This document shows positions 9,359-38,647 of a DNA stretch of 64,000 bases, in pieces. Position numbers and translations under genes: made by a program. How positions within the stretch are numbered: position 1 is the stretch's first letter; each line of letters starts with the position of its first letter. Below the pieces are notes generated by a model. It made no database searches. It was not told the DNA's origin and was given only the letters and a program-made list of their open reading frames with translations. The DNA comes from a virus. Location: the IMG/VR virus record IMGVR_UViG_3300009790_000004, positions 32,001-96,000 of that record. One strand, given 5' to 3'.

Positions 9359-11487
9359 TGTTAGATGCTGCTCTGTTCGGTAAAAGTCAATTTTTAGGTA
9401 GAGACGGATTCCGTTGGTGGGTCGGTCAGATACCCCCTATTGCCGCACAAGAGGATCAGACTGCAAAAGGAGAGGGAATAGGAAATAGATATAAAGTTCG
9501 TATTATGGGATATCATCCTTTCAATGAGGATATCCCTAACGAAGATCTTCCATATGCACAAGTTCTACTACCTGTAACTTCAGGTAGTGGTGGAGCTGGT
9601 TTTTCTCAATCAGTTAAACTACAGCAGGGTGATACTGTCTTTGGATTTTTCTTAGATGGTGATAATGCTCAAATTCCATTGATTATTGGTCATTTTGGAA
9701 GAACTTCTCAAGTAAATACTGCTGAATATCAAGCACCATTTTCACCTTTTACTGGAAAGACTGAATGGACACCTACCAATTCTAGAAATCCAGTAGATGA
9801 AACTAACGAGGATAATAAAGAATCAATGACTCCACCAGGAACAGGTGGAGAGAAAAAAGATCAGGTAGGTGTAGGACAAAAGATTATTGTTGCTGATACT
9901 TGTAAGAGTAATCCCATTTCTGAAATGGCGAATACTGTTGAGAATTTAGGACTACGAGTTAAGCAACTGTCTTTAGCTGGTGCTAATTTACAAAATGAGA
10001 TTAGAGCTGCTTCTGACTTAGTTGAGATCCAAGCGAATAAATTCGTTGGGACAATGTTCACTAAACTTTTTGATAAGTTAGAGGATCTTGGTTCTCAAGG
10101 ACTGGATAAATTATATAAAATGGTTTATCGTATAGTCTTTAAGCTTACAAAATCTCGTACTGCTGCACATAGAGCAGGAGTTGCAGCACAAACTGCTATG
10201 GTTCCCCCTACAGCATTTTTGCAGGAATCTATTGGTTGTGTCGCAGCTAAAGTTGTTGAAGGATTGAGTGGTACTATTGAAGATCTACTCAAAGGATTTA
10301 TAGATGAAGGAAGAGATTATGCTGGATGTATGGGTGCTCAGTTTGTTGGAGCATTTTTAAATACGATTACTGATAGTATTGATAACTTAATGTCAGGTCC
10401 GTTATCTTTAGTGGCAAAAATTATCGCCCCAGGATTTAATGTCTCTGACTTTTTATTAAGTGCTGCTGGTAATATTGAGGATATCGCTTCATTCCTTGAT
10501 TGTAATCAGACTAATACTGGTAAGTGTCCATCAGATAAACAATATGTTGTAGGTGGTAGTAGTGAAGAGAAAGGAGATGATCCTTTTGCATATGTTATGA
10601 ATGCAATGAATATATCTAAGGGTGCTGCTGACCTTACTAATGCTTTTGAACAGAAATGGGGTAAGTGGGATATCTTTGGTGATGGTAGTCTATTAGAAGA
10701 TACTGGTAGTGGTACTATTCCTGGTGGTTGTTATGGTGGTAAGAAATCTAATTGTACTGGACCATATATTGAAATATTTGGTGGTGGTGGATCAGGTGGT
10801 ATTGCCAAACCTATTCTTGGTTACTTTGTAGACAACACTCCTGGATTGAGAAAGTTAGTTGGTGGAGTGAAGAGAACAGCAAGTATTATAGGTGCTGAAA
10901 TAAAAGTACCTGGTCGTGGATATCGTTATCCTCCCATAGTTAATTTCAGAGACAAATGTGATATAGGATATGGTGCTGTTGGTCATGCTATTCTTAATGA
11001 AGAAGGTGGTATAAAAGAAATTGTTATGGATTCTATTGGGGAAAATTATCCTGCTATAGTAGATGATGATACAGCAACACCAATAGGAATTACAACTGTT
11101 CATATTGGTGCTGGTGGAACAGGTTATAAACCATCAGATCCTATTGTTATTCCTGGTGTTAGTCCTACTGGTAATGTCTATATTCCTGTACCTGAAACTA
11201 ATGTCACTTGGCCAGATGGAGATCCAGTAGATCCTACTACAGGAATATCTACTTTCGTTACTGGACCTGGATTTGGTAAGACTACACCAATATATCAAAC
11301 TGTTATAGATCCTGATACTGGTACTATAGTTGAGGTTAAGGTTCTAAATATATTGAGGTTTGATGAGACTCTTCCTAATATTATCGTTAAGAGTGATACA
11401 GGAACGGGTGCTATATTAAGACCTGTCTTTGGGGATGTTCCGAAGGCTACTCAGGTTGGTATTATATCCGCAATCGACTGTATCTAA
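9358..11487 (+). CDS. gp5: Baseplate central spike gp5, N-terminal OB domain; no recognisable lysozyme domain
   Basis: GRDGFRWWVGQI, RYKVRIMGYH, LPYAQVLLP, GDTVFGFFLDGDNAQIPLIIG. Confidence 0.85.
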   Translation: MLDAALFGKSQFLGRDGFRWWVGQIPPIAAQEDQTAKGEGIGNRYKVRIMGYHPFNEDIPNEDLPYAQVLLPVTSGSGGAGFSQSVKLQQGDTVFGFFLDGDNAQIPLIIGHFGRTSQVNTAEYQAPFSPFTGKTEWTPTNSRNPVDETNEDNKESMTPPGTGGEKKDQVGVGQKIIVADTCKSNPISEMANTVENLGLRVKQLSLAGANLQNEIRAASDLVEIQANKFVGTMFTKLFDKLEDLGSQGLDKLYKMVYRIVFKLTKSRTAAHRAGVAAQTAMVPPTAFLQESIGCVAAKVVEGLSGTIEDLLKGFIDEGRDYAGCMGAQFVGAFLNTITDSIDNLMSGPLSLVAKIIAPGFNVSDFLLSAAGNIEDIASFLDCNQTNTGKCPSDKQYVVGGSSEEKGDDPFAYVMNAMNISKGAADLTNAFEQKWGKWDIFGDGSLLEDTGSGTIPGGCYGGKKSNCTGPYIEIFGGGGSGGIAKPILGYFVDNTPGLRKLVGGVKRTASIIGAEIKVPGRGYRYPPIVNFRDKCDIGYGAVGHAILNEEGGIKEIVMDSIGENYPAIVDDDTATPIGITTVHIGAGGTGYKPSDPIVIPGVSPTGNVYIPVPETNVTWPDGDPVDPTTGISTFVTGPGFGKTTPIYQTVIDPDTGTIVEVKVLNILRFDETLPNIIVKSDTGTGAILRPVFGDVPKATQVGIISAIDCI

Positions 11488-12818: not shown

Positions 12819-13020
12819 TGTTGGGTTGATCGCCCAACATGGGAGTGACTGAATAAACTTGCTGGCATATGGCTAGTTAAGGTGATGCAACAGGCGTGGT
12901 GGCCGCTAGGAGGAGTCTCCTAGAACTAACTTACCAGTTAGGTTGTAGACTGATCGGAAAAATCTACTCAATGTAGCAATGCCCCGATCCTGTTGGTACA
13001 CATAAATCCAACCTCCCCAC
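12819..13020 (+). ncRNA. manA RNA: Probable manA RNA motif
   Basis: ORF-free and GC-enriched; 5' hairpin TGTTGGG/CCCAACA; closing GGGAG...CTCCC; internal stems CTAGGAG/CTCCTAG, CTAACT/AGTTAG, GTTGG/CCAAC, GGCAT/ATGCC; GGGAGTGACTGAATAA...AAGGTGATG...AATCCAACCTCCC matches my recollection of the manA consensus; upstream of a sugar-metabolism gene in a cyanophage. Confidence 0.75.
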
Positions 13021-13041
13021 TCAAATATTTACTGTTGAATC

Positions 13042-32840: not shown

Positions 32841-33175
32841 CTCCCGATAGACATGATTTTCCTATTATAGGAGATTTCTATACTAAAGCAGAAGTGGATC
32901 AAATGATTGCTGATGCACTGGCAGAAGCAAGAGCAATAGATGAAGAATCTATGCGTAAACATAACAGAACTGCAACTATTATTAGTATGATATTAGGGTT
33001 TATATGTTTAGCATTATTTGTAGATGGATTGTTAAGAATATTAGGTATTATTCCACCATTTATGGATTTAGATGTTAATGTTATTGATGATATTATAGAT
33101 AAGGTGGAGAGTGATATTATGCCACTCGTTCAAGATACAGCAACAAAAGCACAACGGTACATTCCAGGAAGATGA
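32837..33175 (+). CDS. Hypothetical membrane protein
   Basis: One hydrophobic segment; coupled start. Confidence 0.6.
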   Translation: MTPDRHDFPIIGDFYTKAEVDQMIADALAEARAIDEESMRKHNRTATIISMILGFICLALFVDGLLRILGIIPPFMDLDVNVIDDIIDKVESDIMPLVQDTATKAQRYIPGR

Positions 33176-33456
33176 CTTTTCTAATCGCTATTATGTCATT
33201 CGCAAACTTTGTATTCTATCCTTTAGTGGTAGGTTCAATTATTGCTGTTATTATCGAACAGATATTGAGAGCAAGAGGTGATGATGATAACCCACAAGAT
33301 GTGAGAAATGTAGTCATATCAATGGGTATCAGGAAATATCTTATTAGACAAGCATGGTTATTTAATATAATATGGTTTGTTGGTTATTTTATTCTTATGT
33401 TTACAATAGGTAGACAAGGACAACAACCAATGCCTGATCTTATTTGGCAAGGATAA
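33172..33456 (+). CDS. Hypothetical membrane protein (two TM segments)
   Basis: Two hydrophobic segments; ATGA overlap. Confidence 0.6.
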   Translation: MTFLIAIMSFANFVFYPLVVGSIIAVIIEQILRARGDDDNPQDVRNVVISMGIRKYLIRQAWLFNIIWFVGYFILMFTIGRQGQQPMPDLIWQG

Positions 33457-33608
33457 TGATTTTAGTTATTATAATAGTATCATTATTACTCTTATTAGTT
33501 GTTGGTGGACTTTACCTTACATTTGGTAGTGGTAGTAAACAATTAAGAGATCCTATTGATGAACATGCTAAAATGCACGAGTTAGGTATAGCACATAAAC
33601 ATGATTAA
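33456..33608 (+). CDS. psbN: PsbN-like photosystem assembly protein (absent from the ORF track)
   Basis: MILVIIIVSLLLLLVVGGLYLTFGSGSKQLRDPIDEHAKMHELGIAHKHD: TM helix plus the Y..FG..S..LRDP..EH PsbN motif. Confidence 0.8.
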   Translation: MILVIIIVSLLLLLVVGGLYLTFGSGSKQLRDPIDEHAKMHELGIAHKHD

Positions 33609-33729
33609 CTTATCTCCTGATTCATTAAGAATACTCGCTATAATGATATTAGGGTTAATATGGTTTTATTTGGTTATAGAACAAATTGCAGTTAATTCAA
33701 CTCAGAAAGATGACAATGAACCCAGATAA
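33601..33729 (+). CDS. Small single-TM protein
   Basis: MINLSPDSLRILAIMILGLIWFYLVIEQIAVNSTQKDDNEPR. Confidence 0.45.
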   Translation: MINLSPDSLRILAIMILGLIWFYLVIEQIAVNSTQKDDNEPR

Positions 33730-33931
33730 TATTCCATTAAGGAATACATCACAAGAATTTGAATATGAGAAAATATCAAGAGAAATAGATCGTTGTAATG
33801 ATGTGAAAGAATTGCAGACAATGTGTAAGTTTTTAGTTAAATTAGAGATGAAAACTAGAGAGAATTATAGTATTATGATTGCTGATACTCTTGACGCAAT
33901 GAATTTAGATCTACCACAGGACACTTTATAA
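33710..33931 (+). CDS. Small helical cyanophage protein (weak NblA-like resemblance)
   Basis: MTMNPDNIPLRNTSQEFEYEKISREID...CKFLVKL. Confidence 0.45.
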   Translation: MTMNPDNIPLRNTSQEFEYEKISREIDRCNDVKELQTMCKFLVKLEMKTRENYSIMIADTLDAMNLDLPQDTL

Positions 33932-33937
33932 ACTGTC
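33920..33937. promoter_or_regulatory. Palindrome, copy 2
   Basis: GACACT-ttataa-ACTGTC; TATAAT at 33990-95. Confidence 0.55.
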
Positions 33938-34024
33938 TGTTTTATGTAAAGAGTTGTTACAATACCATTTCTTGTCAACCATTGTCCTTTATAATATGGG
34001 AGTACAAGCGAATTTTAACTACCT

Positions 34025-34471
34025 ATGCCAACTGCATCTACAGCGAAAACAACAACAACTCGCAAAAGACGCACACGCAAAACTACCACTCCAAAATCAA
34101 CTGCTAAGGTTATTAAGGAGATTCAAGCAGTTTTAGATGCACCAACACCTAAATCTCTTGATAAGGTACAACCAACAGTTAAAAAGACACCTGTAAAGAG
34201 AACTCCTAAAGCAAAAGTTTCCACTCCTAAATATCAGCAACCTGTTGAGATTAAGAAAGTGACTGAAACTAAAGCAACTAAAGTTCGTCCTGCTAAACCA
34301 AATCTAACCATTGCAGATTACACTGCTGATATTAAAGTTAGATGGGAAATTCATCAGTGGGAAACACAAGAACTTTGGAATGATGTAGTTAAAGGTTATA
34401 ACAATGCTAAACCATTTGTTATTAAATCTGTTGATTATGTCAAGGAGTCCTACAACAGAGCATTTAACTAG
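34025..34471 (+). CDS. Basic Lys/Thr/Pro-rich protein, possibly nucleic-acid binding
   Basis: TTTTRKRRTRKTTTPK..., low-complexity basic N-terminus. Confidence 0.6.
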   Translation: MPTASTAKTTTTRKRRTRKTTTPKSTAKVIKEIQAVLDAPTPKSLDKVQPTVKKTPVKRTPKAKVSTPKYQQPVEIKKVTETKATKVRPAKPNLTIADYTADIKVRWEIHQWETQELWNDVVKGYNNAKPFVIKSVDYVKESYNRAFN

Positions 34472-34527
34472 ACCAGTTAACAAAGTGTCACCCAACCCCT
34501 TCACAGGGGTTTTTTTATTGCTATAAT
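34472..34527 (+). promoter_or_regulatory. Palindrome + terminator + -10 cassette, copy 3, driving the structured RNA
   Basis: ACCAGT-taacaa-AGTGTC (34472-89), 32 nt, TGcTATAAT (34522-27). Confidence 0.75.
34494..34516 (+). terminator. Rho-independent terminator
   Basis: AACCCCT-tcac-AGGGGTT followed by a T run. Confidence 0.8.
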
Positions 34528-34533
34528 AAGAAT

Positions 34534-34746
34534 GTTGAGGGATATGTGGTTCCTATGCCCGAAAACTCACCTGACGGTAACTGATTCGCTCATCCGCAGT
34601 AATTGAGTTAGTAGGGGTTCAGGTGTAAGCGATTCCCATAGGGTAAATTTGGGCATAGTAGGTGAAACCTCTGTTGATGCCCCACTCCCTCAACTGCTGC
34701 ATGTCCCTTTGGTGGTTTCAGACATGGAGGCGATAGGAAACCACCA
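34534..34746 (+). ncRNA. Unclassified structured RNA (multibranch domain plus 3' H-type pseudoknot)
   Basis: GTTGAGGGA/TCCCTCAAC, CTATGCCC/GGGCATAG, CACCTGA/TCAGGTG; interleaved CATGTC/GACATG and TGGTGGTTTC/GAAACCACCA; 5' end lies 7 nt after the -10 box. Confidence 0.75.
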
Positions 34747-34767
34747 CAATATTGTACACAATTCCAC

Positions 34768-35472
34768 ATGAATTCCACACTCGCTGGCAAAAAAGCAAAA
34801 GCAGATGGACACAAATATGAGGTGGATTGTGTTGCAATGTTAAATAAACTCTTCGGTGGCGATCATGCTACTGATGGGAGACCACAGACTAAAGTAGATG
34901 TATATGATAAGGAAGGAGTTAACACTTATTCAGTCAAAAATGTATCAAAAAACCACACTCAAGTGGCATTATTGTCCAGTCAAAAGTTTATAGATCATTT
35001 CAATCTTACTGATTCTGGATGTGAACGATTCATCAATATGTTCTTTGGATATTATAACAAAGAACTACAATCTATTGTTGAAAGTAAGCATCCAGAATTG
35101 TCTCTAAGTGATGCTGAGATAAGACAAAATAGGGTCTATAAGAATAACATATCAGATAGTATTATAGATGAGTTCTTAACATTTATGAACTCAAATAAGA
35201 TAGAGATATTTGATATTATTGTGAGGCGAGGGTTCAATGGTGATGCAGTTAATCATATAATATGGAGGAATAAAATAACAACTTCTGTTAATATTATAGA
35301 TGTTGAATCCCTTGCTTCATTGGTAGAAAATGGTATTTGGAAAATAAATAATACTACATTAGAGTTTAGAACTGCTGATAACATTAAACTATTTCATTTA
35401 CAAATGAAAGGAAGTGGCAAGAAATATAATAGTGGTTATCATGGTATGATGTTTCACATGTATTGGAGTTAA
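34768..35472 (+). CDS. HinP1I/MspI-like type II restriction endonuclease homolog (no methyltransferase in the window)
   Basis: LAGKKAKADGHKYE, TKVDV, YSVKN..KNHTQV, FDIIVRRG, HLQMKGSG, MMFHM follow, in order, the HinP1I motifs as I recall them (GSKTAKDGFKNE, KSDI, IQVK..GFNQI, DILRGRG, IQRKGG, LQFKI). Confidence 0.7.
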   Translation: MNSTLAGKKAKADGHKYEVDCVAMLNKLFGGDHATDGRPQTKVDVYDKEGVNTYSVKNVSKNHTQVALLSSQKFIDHFNLTDSGCERFINMFFGYYNKELQSIVESKHPELSLSDAEIRQNRVYKNNISDSIIDEFLTFMNSNKIEIFDIIVRRGFNGDAVNHIIWRNKITTSVNIIDVESLASLVENGIWKINNTTLEFRTADNIKLFHLQMKGSGKKYNSGYHGMMFHMYWS

Positions 35473-35752
35473 TTAATGCTAACAACTACTAATACTGATT
35501 ATCACTCTGAGTATTGGATTATGAATCAACATATACATCCAAATGCTAGACTAGATAATAAAGAAGACATTAAATCTATAGATAATAATATTAGTAACCC
35601 AAACCGTAATTTATTAATTAAGTATGTCAATTAAGGGTACACACGACATTTATCACGAAGAAATAGAGATATGGAAGAGTAGATTTTACTCTCTATATCA
35701 TTGGGTAGAGCAACAAGAATTTAGCGAAGAGTTCCCATTATCTGAGGTAGTG

Positions 35753-35808
35753 GACACTCAAGAAACTGTCTATACATCATCAAAATACAAATAACATAAT
35801 GCTATACT
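35753..35808 (+). promoter_or_regulatory. Palindrome + -10 cassette, copy 4
   Basis: GACACT-caagaa-ACTGTC (35753-70), 32 nt, TGcTATACT (35803-08). Confidence 0.7.
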
Positions 35809-35831
35809 GACTATATGGTCAGGAAAACAAT

Positions 35832-37103
35832 TTGATTAAACTTCGGTCTCATCAGTCTCGTGCTTTAGACAAACTAAAGTCAAGAGATAAGGGTTGTGTC
35901 TATGTTCCTACTGGTGGTGGCAAGACTATCATCATGTTAGAGGATTTAGTACAACGATTACAGAGTGCTCATTCACCACAAACAGTGGTAATCGTAGCAC
36001 CTAGAATATTACTTGCTGGTCAATTATGTTCTGAATTCTTAGAATATATTGATGGCAATTCTGATTTCGATTATGATAACAACTATAACATATTACATGT
36101 TCATAGTGGTGAAACTGTTTACGATTCATCTACTAAATCAGATTATATAAGAGAATGGGTGATAGATAGAAACTTTCTAATTCAACATTCAATTATATTT
36201 TCCACTTATCATTCTTTGGGTAGAATTGTTGACTCTGAAATAGATGTTGATGTATTATATTGTGATGAAGCACATAACGCAACACAAAAACATCATTTTG
36301 TGGGAGTTGCTGCTACATCAACAAATGCAACTAACAGTTATTTCTTTACAGCAACACCCAAATATACTAGAGGTGGATGTAATCGTGGCATGAACAATGT
36401 TGATGTGTTTGGTAATACTTTAATTAGTGTACCTGCACCTGAACTTGTTAACAATGGGAGTATAATACCACCCAAATTAGTAGTACATGAAACTGAACAT
36501 GTACGCACTAAGTATAACGCACATGATGTAGATCGTGAGATGGTATTAGAAATCATTGATGATTTACAAGAAGAAGAATCAGCAAAAGTGTTAGTTGCTG
36601 CCCCTAATACTAAAGTATTATGGAATATGCTATCACAAACTGATATTTTGCATATTTTAAAATGTAAGGGGTATGATATACTTCATATCACATCTAAGCA
36701 TGGTGCATATATTAATAGAAAGAAAGTTGGTAGGGATAAATTCTTTCAAACTCTAACAGATTGGGGTAAGGATGATGATAAAAAGTTTATCGTATTTCAT
36801 TACTCAATATTATCTGAAGGGATCAATGTTCCAGGATTAACTCATACTATTCTATTAAGAAATCTACCTGTTATTGAAATGGCACAGACAATAGGTAGAG
36901 TTATTCGCCTACATAAAGATGACGCAAAAGATATTGCCAACGGTAATATTGCTGCTGGTAATTATCAATTATATCGTAAATCTCATGGAGTCGTAACTGT
37001 GCCATTATGCGGTAAAGCATCTCTGGCAACTAGGAATAGACTACAAAAGATAATTGAATTAATCTTTGAAGATGGTCTCCCTGCTCACTCATTCGCATAT
37101 TAA
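35832..37103 (+). CDS. SF2 DEAH helicase (type III restriction res-subunit-like)
   Basis: PTGGGKT, DEAH, TAT, LSEGINVP, QTIGRVIR. Confidence 0.9.
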   Translation: MIKLRSHQSRALDKLKSRDKGCVYVPTGGGKTIIMLEDLVQRLQSAHSPQTVVIVAPRILLAGQLCSEFLEYIDGNSDFDYDNNYNILHVHSGETVYDSSTKSDYIREWVIDRNFLIQHSIIFSTYHSLGRIVDSEIDVDVLYCDEAHNATQKHHFVGVAATSTNATNSYFFTATPKYTRGGCNRGMNNVDVFGNTLISVPAPELVNNGSIIPPKLVVHETEHVRTKYNAHDVDREMVLEIIDDLQEEESAKVLVAAPNTKVLWNMLSQTDILHILKCKGYDILHITSKHGAYINRKKVGRDKFFQTLTDWGKDDDKKFIVFHYSILSEGINVPGLTHTILLRNLPVIEMAQTIGRVIRLHKDDAKDIANGNIAAGNYQLYRKSHGVVTVPLCGKASLATRNRLQKIIELIFEDGLPAHSFAY

Positions 37104-37105
37104 CA

Positions 37106-37267
37106 ATGGCAAAGTATTTACACACAATTTATTATAAGAATAACGGTGGTTCTACATTAGAATCTACTATTATTGCTGAAACACCAGATGATGCTAAATC
37201 ATCATTTATTGCAAGCAATCCAAATGCTTCAATAGACAAAATCCTAACAACTGTACCTGCTAAGTAA
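37106..37267 (+). CDS. Small early protein (53 aa)
   Basis: MAKYLHTIYYKNNGGSTLESTIIAETPDDAKSSF...; manual translation. Confidence 0.5.
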   Translation: MAKYLHTIYYKNNGGSTLESTIIAETPDDAKSSFIASNPNASIDKILTTVPAK

Positions 37268-37271
37268 CATC

Positions 37272-37427
37272 ATGTTTTTTGAAATTCGCAAACAAGAAGT
37301 AGTATTTTATCACCCTAATCATGGATTACAAAGTGTTATTGTAAACTCTAATAATCCTGATGGTGCTAAACAATTAATACTAGAACAGTATGGCAATGTT
37401 GACATCAAGAGGGTGAATTCCCTCTAG
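37272..37427 (+). CDS. Small early protein (51 aa), possibly related to the upstream ORF
   Basis: ...QSVIVNSNNPDGAKQLILEQYGNVDIKRV; shares the S.I....PD.AK pattern. Confidence 0.5.
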   Translation: MFFEIRKQEVVFYHPNHGLQSVIVNSNNPDGAKQLILEQYGNVDIKRVNSL

Positions 37428-37436
37428 GAGGATAAC

Positions 37437-37634
37437 ATGAATGTACCAAATTGGCAACACCACAGTAAAAAAGAACAGAAAAGGACTTTAAGACCACAGG
37501 CACTAAGAAGTGCCAAGGCAAGAGTCAAACAGTTTAAGAAGTGTCACATGACCCCTTACAAAAACACTTGTAAGGGGTTATACTATGTAAGTACACAACA
37601 AAAGGTGATTAATGCCAAACACTCCACCCATTGA
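37437..37634 (+). CDS. Small basic cyanophage protein
   Basis: MNVPNWQHHSKKEQKRTLRPQALR; AGGAGG ribosome-binding site. Confidence 0.55.
   Translation: MNVPNWQHHSKKEQKRTLRPQALRSAKARVKQFKKCHMTPYKNTCKGLYYVSTQQKVINAKHSTH
37528..37584 (+). promoter_or_regulatory. Palindrome + hairpin + -10 cassette, copy 5
   Basis: AACAGT-ttaaga-AGTGTC (37528-45), hairpin ACCCCTTACA/TGTAAGGGGT, TATACT (37579-84). Confidence 0.7.
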
Positions 37635-37986
37635 GTTAGATCAACGAGGTGTTAGAACTGCCCCAACTGATGTCAAAGCACAACAAGCGGATGTTCTTAA
37701 TTATACCAAGTTTCTAACACAAATACTTGAGCAACATTACATTCAACAGTATCCAAATTCAGGCAACAAGTTAACATTTACTATTGAAACTGGTAGAAGA
37801 TATTTAAAGATAATTCAAGACAATTCAGTACACGCATTTGTTGATAAAACTACAGGTGATGTATACAAACCAGCAGGTTGGAAATCACCAGCAAAGATAG
37901 TAAGATATAATTTATTAGATGAACAATCACGCATTAAGTGTTATCAATGTGCTGATTGGGCAGGTGGTTATCTATATTTAAGATAG
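37612..37986 (+). CDS. Conserved phage hypothetical protein
   Basis: GRRYLKII..SVHAFVD..TGDVYKPAGWKSPAK..RYNL...ADWAGGYLY. Confidence 0.7.
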   Translation: MPNTPPIELDQRGVRTAPTDVKAQQADVLNYTKFLTQILEQHYIQQYPNSGNKLTFTIETGRRYLKIIQDNSVHAFVDKTTGDVYKPAGWKSPAKIVRYNLLDEQSRIKCYQCADWAGGYLYLR

Positions 37987-37998
37987 GGGGATTATAAT

Positions 37999-38184
37999 AT
38001 GTCAGCATTTAATCAACTTGATTTGTTATCAGATTGTTTAGAAGATTTCTGCACTAAGTACAACTTAGAGTTTATGAGTGCAGATGATATTTTATACGGT
38101 GATTCTGATGGTAAATTAACAAGTTACCAGAGAGATTGGTTGAGAAACTATATCTCAGTCTGGGACACTATTGTAAACCTATGA
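37999..38184 (+). CDS. Small acidic early protein
   Basis: ORF track; GGGG ribosome-binding site. Confidence 0.55.
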   Translation: MSAFNQLDLLSDCLEDFCTKYNLEFMSADDILYGDSDGKLTSYQRDWLRNYISVWDTIVNL

Positions 38185-38194
38185 GGATTTAATC

Positions 38195-38422
38195 ATGTAT
38201 CAAAGTGAATTTTTTGGAAGACATTTCTGGGTTGATGATGATTTAGAGTTGAAATCTGCACCGTCATATATTGATGGTACTGCTGATTTTGAACTCGAAG
38301 ATTATGTTTCAAACTGGGAAGATTGGGAGGGAGTTAATGTTAGTTTACTCTTAGACATTTACAAGTGTGAAATATTAAATAAGAAAGATTATTCAGGTTC
38401 ATTATCACACAAAGGAGCGTAA
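38195..38422 (+). CDS. Small acidic early protein
   Basis: ORF track; GAGG ribosome-binding site. Confidence 0.55.
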   Translation: MYQSEFFGRHFWVDDDLELKSAPSYIDGTADFELEDYVSNWEDWEGVNVSLLLDIYKCEILNKKDYSGSLSHKGA

Positions 38423-38428
38423 CTAACA

Positions 38429-38647
38429 ATGAACGGACTCAAATCAACACCAGCACAGTTACAAAGAAGGAAGGAAGTTGTTAGAGATTTGTATGAAATA
38501 GTGAAGGAAGAATTTGAGGAGTATAAACTTAGAGATGAGAATGATTCACTCTTAGGTTATATTTTAGATGAATACATTTACAAATGTACTGAACTCGAAA
38601 TTAATGAACTTGAGGACATTATTGTTAATCATTATGGGATAGATTAA
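38429..38647 (+). CDS. Small acidic early protein
   Basis: ORF track; AGGAG ribosome-binding site. Confidence 0.55.
   Translation: MNGLKSTPAQLQRRKEVVRDLYEIVKEEFEEYKLRDENDSLLGYILDEYIYKCTELEINELEDIIVNHYGID

Follow-up and report, generated by a model that had tools for sequence, protein, structure and literature searches.

An uncatalogued three-way-junction RNA family of P-SSM2-like marine cyanomyoviruses

Large multi-stem RNAs with strong covariation, which sit in probable 5' leaders and for which neither a ligand nor a partner is known, have been described as manA (RF01745) and wcaG (RF01761), and both are found almost only in marine metagenomes and in cyanomyoviruses (PMC2864571). A different kind of element, the PeSL, is a cassette of a promoter and a stem-loop in the hyperplastic regions of T4-type phages (Arbiol et al. 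2010, PMC2839356). We analyzed a stretch of 64,000 nt (the window, positions 32,001-96,000 of the IMG/VR record IMGVR_UViG_3300009790_000004), which belongs to an uncultured T4-like cyanophage fragment of 110 kb that is ~51% complete, and found an RNA that shares all of the above traits with manA and wcaG. This RNA is an uncatalogued, phage-only family of P-SSM2-like marine cyanomyoviruses, new among such orphan structured RNAs. Coordinates are window positions unless a locus is named, and the RNA and its parts lie on the + strand.

The new RNA differs from manA and wcaG in that it shows no sequence or structure match to them even at E values up to 10, and in that one of its stems accepts inserts of up to 251 nt. 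Moreover, manA and wcaG stand before metabolic or photosynthesis genes that form a functionally coherent set, whereas the new RNA precedes at least 30 unrelated families of early open reading frames (ORFs). The sequence in front of it, at 34494-34527, resembles a PeSL in combining a terminator stem-loop with a strong sigma-70-like early promoter and in being surrounded by shuffled gene cassettes. However, PeSLs as described do not have a conserved folded RNA of 115-400 nt downstream of the transcription start site (+1), and they are numerous, whereas the RNA motif occurs about once per genome.

A further comparison concerns riboswitch aptamers that are built around a three-way junction, such as the purine and thiamine pyrophosphate (TPP) aptamers. 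The new RNA is like them in the free sequence of its closing helix P1, its invariant junction, its variable peripheral stem and its place straight after a promoter. Unlike riboswitches, the motif has no ligand, conserved terminator or anti-terminator, platform sequestering the ribosome-binding site, or coherent set of regulated genes to its name. The put RNAs of phage HK022 are cis-acting antitermination elements of ~70 nt that consist of two simple stem-loops and exert their effect on the transcribing complex. By analogy, the new RNA may be compared with them as a folded RNA located just downstream of early phage promoters whatever genes follow, but the two have no sequence likeness.

Comparative evidence for the RNA fold

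When the window sequence was folded alone, the minimum free energy structure was not significant (z = -1.8), and it included a CACCTGA/TCAGGTG helix that is not conserved. This helix, which had been proposed in an initial annotation of the window, would join an insert peculiar to the window to one of the invariant junction strands, and it cannot form in most relatives. Because the single-sequence fold is unremarkable, the case for an RNA rests on its relatives. We therefore rely on an alignment of 33 copies with short inserts (A2), from which the secondary structure was written on the basis of covariation. Standard pairs are formed by 95.1% of the cells in this alignment, compared with 29-56% when the partners are slid, and 22 of the 32 pairs changed on both sides, compared with 4-9 in the slid controls. 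The covariation score of the structure was reached by none of 500 shuffles, and compensatory changes are present in six helices of the core.

On these comparative grounds, positions 34534-34694 are the 161-nt core of a three-way-junction RNA. Its closing helix P1 is formed by GTTGAGGGA (34534-34542) and TCCCTCAAC (34686-34694), with all nine pairs changing on both sides, and in one locus (L067) it is wholly replaced by GATCTGAA paired with TTCAGATC. The extension P1b pairs GTGG (34546-34549) with CCAC (34682-34685); it is 99% paired and shows an exchange of GU/AC for AC/GU. Both helices had been proposed from the single sequence, and both covary across homologues; their 3' strands, CCAC and TCCCTCAAC (34682-34694), end the core motif. 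The frequent G-U pairs in P1 would be A-C mismatches on the other strand, and the + strand is therefore the RNA strand. P2 (CCTATG at 34552-34557 with CATAGG at 34637-34642) is 100% paired in the 33-sequence alignment, and among the 117 copies that yielded a P2, out of 127 parsed, it occurs in eight fully complementary Watson-Crick versions and one mismatch copy.

P3 (34558-34616) consists of CCC (34558-34560) and GGG (34614-34616) and closes a window-specific insert hairpin of 53 nt (34561-34613). The junction strand GTTCAGGTGTAAGCGATTCC follows at 34617-34636, and a second junction strand, GTAAATTTG (34643-34651), which is invariant, connects P2 and P4. P4 (34652-34681) pairs GGCAT (34652-34656) with ATGCC (34677-34681) and bears the hairpin P4b, whose tip GGTGAAACC (34661-34669) is likewise invariant. 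The P4/P4b helices, numbers 5 and 6 of the structure, show replacements of GGGC/GCCC by GGAC/GTCC and GGTC/GACC, as well as a change from A-U to G-C at alignment columns 96/106. The comparative data contradict two further helices of the initial annotation, CTATGCCC/GGGCATAG and a CCC-ata-GGG hairpin, since their bases belong to P2, P3 and P4. A conformational switch between the two ATGCCC copies was considered and rejected, because P4 covaries with the downstream copy only.

Across the family, ~50 junction and loop bases show no variation at all; the stretches GUAAGCGA and GGUGAAACC lie within the motif. In the junction strand at 34617-34636 the third base alone varies (U, A or G in variants found with a covariance model). 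Positions 2-20 of this strand fall within the 21-mer that served as the search word, so that the invariance of copies with an exact match is partly given by construction; copies found by the model that do not contain the exact 21-mer deviate in this strand at one base only. A reading of ATGTGGTTC as a micropeptide was ruled out, as variants such as ATACGGTTC and TAACGGTTC have no ATG. The list of open reading frames contains none of note at ~34534-34746. The GC content of the RNA region is 0.47-0.49 compared with 0.28-0.36 in the flanks, which bears out the enrichment noticed earlier.

The insert in P3 ranges from 12 to 251 nt in length across the family and is assembled from recurring small folded modules, which in other loci also occur before or after the motif. 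A minimal version of 118 nt is represented, for example, by L124:8412-8548. Examples of recurring modules are GTGGTATGACTTAGTACC...CATACCAC, GCAAGGATCTATGGTTGTCTC...GTAAGTC and AAGAAGCAGAGACATGA..., which were seen at L001:2590-2680, in L011, L013 and L023 and in many other loci. Depending on the locus, they are located inside P3 or lie on either side of the motif, and none of them matches Rfam.

A covariance model of 136 positions (R1) was built from A2. It matches the window at 34526-34703 over the full model with 117.5 bits (E 3e-33), and the window copy displays the junction of P1/P1b, P2-P3 and P4 together with the invariant strands GTTCAGGTGTAAGCGATTCC, GTAAATTTGG and GGTGAAACC by which the family is defined. 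With R1, both a search model and a corrected secondary structure now exist. The aligned sequences show the motif to be an autonomous folding domain under strong selection.

An element that acts as DNA, namely a homology patch for the recombination of early cassettes in the manner of PeSLs, on which the RNA fold would be incidental, fits the location in a hyperplastic early region beside a PeSL-type promoter and stem-loop (PMC2839356). The shuffling of flanking genes among loci and the presence of a core of ~40 nt that is near-identical across divergent phages would also agree with it. However, the compensatory changes in six helices, together with G-U pairs that are specific to one strand, reveal that an RNA fold is under selection, and the combination of varying helices with fixed loops is the opposite of what a homology patch predicts, so that this explanation is very improbable.

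Directly 3' of the core lies an H-type pseudoknot of 49 nt (34697-34745) with two 9-bp stems in the order A-B-A'-B'. Stem A pairs CTGCATGTC (34697-34705) with GACATGGAG (34721-34729), six of its nine pairs having changed on both sides, and stem B pairs GGTGGTTTC (34711-34719) with GAAACCACC (34737-34745), for which this number is two of nine. Among 23 distinct copies, 95.6% of the cells are paired, compared with 30-53% in slid controls, and 8 of the 18 pairs changed on both sides, compared with 0-3. The covariation in both stems confirms the earlier suggestion that a pseudoknot follows the inner stems. It is carried by 30 of 113 motif copies; 30 of 31 pseudoknot copies are located directly 3' of the motif, and one stands alone after a promoter (L014). 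Judged by this distribution, the pseudoknot is a separate optional module and not part of the 161-nt core. The structured RNA of ~215 nt which had initially been proposed is thus indeed structured, but is not a single unit, since it comprises the 161-nt core and the 49-nt optional pseudoknot.

Distribution of the family and its position behind early promoters

The invariant 21-mer GGTTCAGGTGTAAGCGATTCC is present in at least 120 IMG/VR contigs of cyanomyoviruses and in none of the genomes searched from 185,579 species of bacteria and archaea. The central 90 nt of the RNA were matched by blastn in the cultured phages P-SSM2 and P-SSM5 and in five single-cell viral records; in P-SSM2 the copy is located in the 367-nt gap between PSSM2_070 and PSSM2_071 (AY939844.2, 56691-56827). 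In whole-record searches with R1, each of five records contained exactly one copy; among them were two complete genomes, that of P-SSM2 and a virus record of 202 kb. Within the sequences searched, these results show a phage-restricted family with about one copy per genome. A locus with two motif copies ~900 nt apart (L028, IMGVR_UViG_3300006332_000008) is the sole exception seen to one copy per genome. The RNA is abundant in ocean viromes and confined to phages of Earth's most numerous photosynthetic cells, and it is missing from Rfam. As two cultured phages carry the RNA, it can be tested at the bench.

The initial annotation had found no likeness to known RNA families, and the searches agree with it. 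None of the 4227 models of Rfam 15, which include ribozymes, glnA and HEARO/omega RNA, reaches its gathering threshold at the RNA, and at E values up to 10 only chance matches were obtained (RMST_2 with 16 bits, DicF with 12 bits). The only Rfam match in the window is a full-length manA RNA (RF01745, 155 bits) at 12819-13022 on the + strand. Rfam likewise gave no matches in 12 related loci, and ARAGORN detected no tRNA or tmRNA at the RNA. Within the full texts that could be searched, the invariant strands occur in no relevant paper, the only three matches being those of the 12-mer GTAAATTTGGGC in unrelated adenovirus papers. The invariant 12-mer does not occur either in those Weinberg 2010 alignments that were searchable (200 supplementary files). 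The Ocean-VI motif (Weinberg 2010, PMC2864571), which is not in Rfam, is reported to be missing from all sequenced organisms; given this and the lack of the 12-mer in the files searched, Ocean-VI is probably not the same motif as the RNA described here.

Two loci with related leaders deserve mention. A variant motif is found at L185:9820-9972, in which GGTGCAGG replaces GGTTCAGG with a compensating change from C-G to G-C in P2. At the same place as this variant, locus L179 contains a different, smaller leader ~150 nt upstream of position 10001, which is closed by GGGAGG/CCTCTCCC. It holds a GGG-UAAGCGA-CCC hairpin, and the loop word UAAGCGA is common to the invariant strand of the RNA motif.

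The gene upstream of the RNA in the window ends in a terminator stem-loop, AACCCCTTCACAGGGGTT, followed by a T-run (34494-34518, hairpin at 34494-34511), which is the stem-loop half of a PeSL-type cassette. The putative -35 hexamer TTCACA (34500-34505) lies in the terminator loop and is separated by 16 nt from the extended -10 element TGcTATAAT (34519-34527, -10 box at 34522-34527). TTCACA-16-TGcTATAAT is the best promoter match in the region 33000-38500 (11/12), in agreement with the terminator and promoter that had been proposed earlier, and the predicted +1 at ~34534 would be the first base of P1, as judged from the promoter consensus and the pattern of the family. The overlap of a terminator stem-loop with a sigma-70-like early promoter at 34494-34527, the latter as a consensus match only, corresponds to the description of a PeSL.

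The same arrangement is widespread in the family. TGnTAnnnT is found in 40 of 104 distinct 5' flanks, in 37 of these at the same 9-nt spacing, and a -10 box stands at a constant distance in at least 54 of the 104, while the remaining copies are located behind other RNA modules. A word of the form AACTGTCAC, AAGTGTCAC or AACTGGCAC occurs ~30 nt upstream of the -10 box of the early promoter, at 34472-34492 in the window and in the flanks of many loci. In 23 motif copies a similar word, AAAGTGTCC, stands ~10 nt before P1 with no -10 box in between.

Downstream, a terminator scan identified no terminator between the promoter and the next start codon, an ATG at 34768, as had been noted initially, and the RNA including the pseudoknot ends 22 nt before it. 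In 106 loci, the first same-strand ORF starts at a median distance of ~40 nt after P1, most commonly at 22-28 nt, and these first ORFs belong to the at least 30 unrelated families mentioned above. No partner protein is conserved beside the RNA, as each of the four commonest downstream ORF families is found in only 6-25 of 126 loci.

Candidate roles of the RNA

These features suggest that the RNA is an independent domain heading an early transcript, in which the invariant junction binds one conserved partner and which acts in cis; we assign this interpretation a probability of roughly 50%. A PeSL-type early promoter would start the RNA at the first base of P1, and the RNA would most likely continue into whatever early gene cassette follows. 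The invariant junction may form a pocket in which one conserved partner binds, be it a small molecule or a protein of the host or the phage, and the domain could set the elongation, stability or translation of the early transcript in cis, whichever genes lie downstream, with the 3' pseudoknot as a putative optional accessory module. Given the lack of a conserved platform, the variable distance to the ORF and the unrelated genes downstream, the transcript as a whole, through its elongation or stability, seems a more likely target than the ribosome-binding site. Among structured RNAs, those that covary cleanly and have dozens of invariant junction bases have often turned out to be riboswitches, ribozymes or protein-binding RNAs.

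Several observations weigh against a domain that heads the early transcript and acts in cis. About one third of the copies are located behind other RNA modules and do not start at a promoter, so that a strict dependence on the 5' end is not a general property of its function. Between P1 and the first ORF lie anywhere from 1 to 306 nt, in some cases with other folded modules among them, and there is no conserved expression platform 3' of P1, which argues against classical riboswitch control of a ribosome-binding site. By eye, a T-run is seen directly after P1 in roughly one fifth of the copies and after stem B of the pseudoknot in some copies, and the RNA could end at either place. Finally, one copy per genome and a conservation like that of a gene fit a trans-acting RNA gene equally well.

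Such an RNA gene, in which the motif would be cut or terminated from the leader and persist as a stable small RNA that binds and modulates a protein of the host or the phage, for example a nuclease, the polymerase or the ribosome, is a serious rival, possible if less than probable; the position before genes would then be incidental. Invariant unpaired bases, varying helices and the toleration of large inserts are known from RNase P RNA and tmRNA. The motif likewise combines ~50 invariant unpaired bases with freely varying helices and tolerates large inserts in one stem, it is present in one copy in each of the five records searched whole, and it occurs in any context, either right after a promoter or behind or before other folded modules. 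The T-run after P1 in roughly one fifth of the copies would provide an end for such an RNA. However, most copies have no terminator-like tail and reach an ORF within 22-40 nt, and we know of no processing sites.

The position of the motif at or near the predicted 5' end of early transcripts, with its first base paired in P1, and its indifference to the identity and spacing of the downstream gene would also be expected of a catalytic or nuclease-blocking RNA. Such an RNA might be a ribozyme that cleaves itself and thereby trims the 5' end or sets the RNA modules apart. It might also be a compact knot-like fold at which the host 5'-to-3' exonuclease RNase J stalls or RNase E is blocked, to the benefit of the early mRNA downstream. 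The compactness of the three-way junction, its many invariant bases and the pseudoknot that some copies add 3' of it are compatible with both variants, and host RNase E is upregulated in phage-infected Prochlorococcus (PMC2518516), which also favors this group of explanations. However, no likeness to any Rfam ribozyme was detected at E values up to 10, and a single copy per genome is difficult to reconcile with the many early promoters that would need the same protection, which makes a catalytic or blocking function quite unlikely.

A bolder and rather doubtful proposal is that the motif is a phage-only sensor representing a new riboswitch class, or a new class of ribozyme or nuclease-resistant RNA. 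With regard to a riboswitch, the anatomy is aptamer-like, but no conserved platform was found and the downstream genes belong to at least 30 families. If the proposal held, the first transcripts of P-SSM2-like phages would be gated or protected in response to conditions in the infected Prochlorococcus cell, and P3 would be a landing pad into which other small RNA modules insert and on which they travel.

Neighbouring genes and the restriction-type nuclease

The ORF directly downstream of the RNA in the window (34768-35472, + strand) encodes a putative restriction endonuclease of 234 amino acids with a predicted HinP1I/MspI fold, which is a neighbour of the RNA and not a part of it. In the initial annotation both had been proposed as one unit, in which the RNA is a guide or scaffold, an antitoxin, or a cis-switch that restrains a toxic DNase; the alternative offered there was an independent phage non-coding RNA that simply sits upstream. 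A single unit would be consistent with the 22 nt between the RNA and the ATG of the nuclease, the lack of a terminator between them, and the presence of the RNA within 10 kb in 9 of the 78 viral loci that encode the nuclease family. Moreover, a version of the RNA is located directly upstream of a relative of the nuclease in two other loci, L072 (26% identity) and L185 (53% identity, variant RNA), but in only these two.

The comparison of loci, which had been named beforehand as a check, largely refutes the proposed unit. The RNA stands upstream of unrelated genes, with at least 30 families of first downstream ORFs, and a relative of the nuclease is found within 1 kb downstream of it in 1 of 95 loci (L072). 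In eight of the nine shared loci the order is reversed, with the RNA 0.6-2.7 kb downstream of the nuclease, L185 being the ninth; in three loci a relative was found 2.3-2.8 kb upstream of the RNA. Most nuclease genes are preceded by a bare TATAAT promoter or by an abutting coding sequence, without the RNA. Judged from these gene arrangements, the comparison shows that the RNA and the nuclease are neighbours by cassette shuffling and not a functional pair, and the diversity of downstream ORFs instead supports the RNA that merely sits upstream. Separating the two averts the false lead of an RNA-guided or RNA-restrained DNase.

Known types of RNA-protein pairs do not describe the locus either. 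There is no obligate co-occurrence as for RNA-guided nucleases (omega RNA with IscB-TnpB, or CRISPR), and where such systems have a variable, unstructured guide segment, this RNA varies in an internal insert that is structured. The region 34300-35000 contains no tandem repeats such as those of type III antitoxin RNAs (ToxI-like), whose partner is an endoribonuclease toxin, whereas the predicted fold of the neighbouring protein is that of a restriction endonuclease (DNase); PADLOC gave no match for the nuclease. Since the modeled protein has the fold of self-sufficient HinP1I/MspI type IIP enzymes, a guide would moreover appear dispensable, and taken together a functional unit of RNA and nuclease is highly improbable.

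The commonest longer-range neighbour of the RNA is a superfamily 2 (SF2) helicase gene (ResIII and Helicase_C domains; 35832-37103 in the window), a gene with conserved counterparts in 420 cyanophage records. Of 60 loci, 23 have its start within 2.5 kb on the downstream side of the RNA, and in eight loci 20-80 nt separate it from P1. The helicase gene of the window starts 1138 nt downstream of the RNA, and the nuclease gene and the two small ORFs in between look like a cassette insertion. In P-SSM2 no helicase is encoded within 10 kb of the RNA. A general leader of the helicase gene was ruled out, as the motif is absent upstream of the helicase in the Synechococcus phages ACG-2014d and Sf-CH11.

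The nuclease family comprises at least 118 members and has no Pfam domain. An AlphaFold model of the 234-residue protein (pLDDT 91) matches HinP1I best (2fkc_A, TM 0.72, E 1.4e-10), followed by MspI and HhaI. The residues E18, D44 and S55-x-K57 are invariant in an alignment of 31 sequences of the family and, assigned by eye, resemble a PD-(D/E)XK-type active site. With this predicted fold and residues of the pattern E...D...(Q/S)-x-K, the protein would be a HinP1I/MspI-like type IIP enzyme, a fold that reads DNA by itself. The likeness to R.HinP1I (PDB 2FKC, 1YNM), R.MspI (1SA3) and R.HhaI (6UKE) lies in the predicted fold, whereas the sequence identity is 11-15% and the word that is missing from the genomes of carriers is ACGT, not GCGC or CCGG.

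In the 110-kb record ACGT is found 0 times compared with 129 expected, and in 44 loci that encode a nuclease homologue at least 53% identical (the counts cover the record and loci L143-L185) it is found 0 times compared with 786 expected, independent of whether CCGG or GCGC is kept. In contrast, 722 kb of motif loci contain 1078 ACGT sites compared with 1339 expected, and in the absence of the nuclease gene the word reaches 0.8 of expectation. The 110-kb record, which represents about half a genome, encodes no detectable methyltransferase of the C5, N6/N4 or Dam type. The simplest reading of these counts is that the nuclease cuts ACGT and that the phage is safe by offering no site, and an RNA antitoxin or switch would therefore be unnecessary. 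The absence of ACGT from every locus with a close homologue would be a simpler means of self-protection than a restraining RNA. The nuclease illustrates a principle in which a phage restriction enzyme comes without a methylase and is safe because the genome has no copy of its presumed target.

CCGG, CGCG and GCGC are also absent from the window (positions 1-64000; 20, 9 and 21 expected, respectively) and from the 110-kb record. These three words are strongly depleted in related cyanophage contigs with or without the nuclease gene (7/177, 33/139 and 33/248, respectively), which probably reflects avoidance of host restriction systems.

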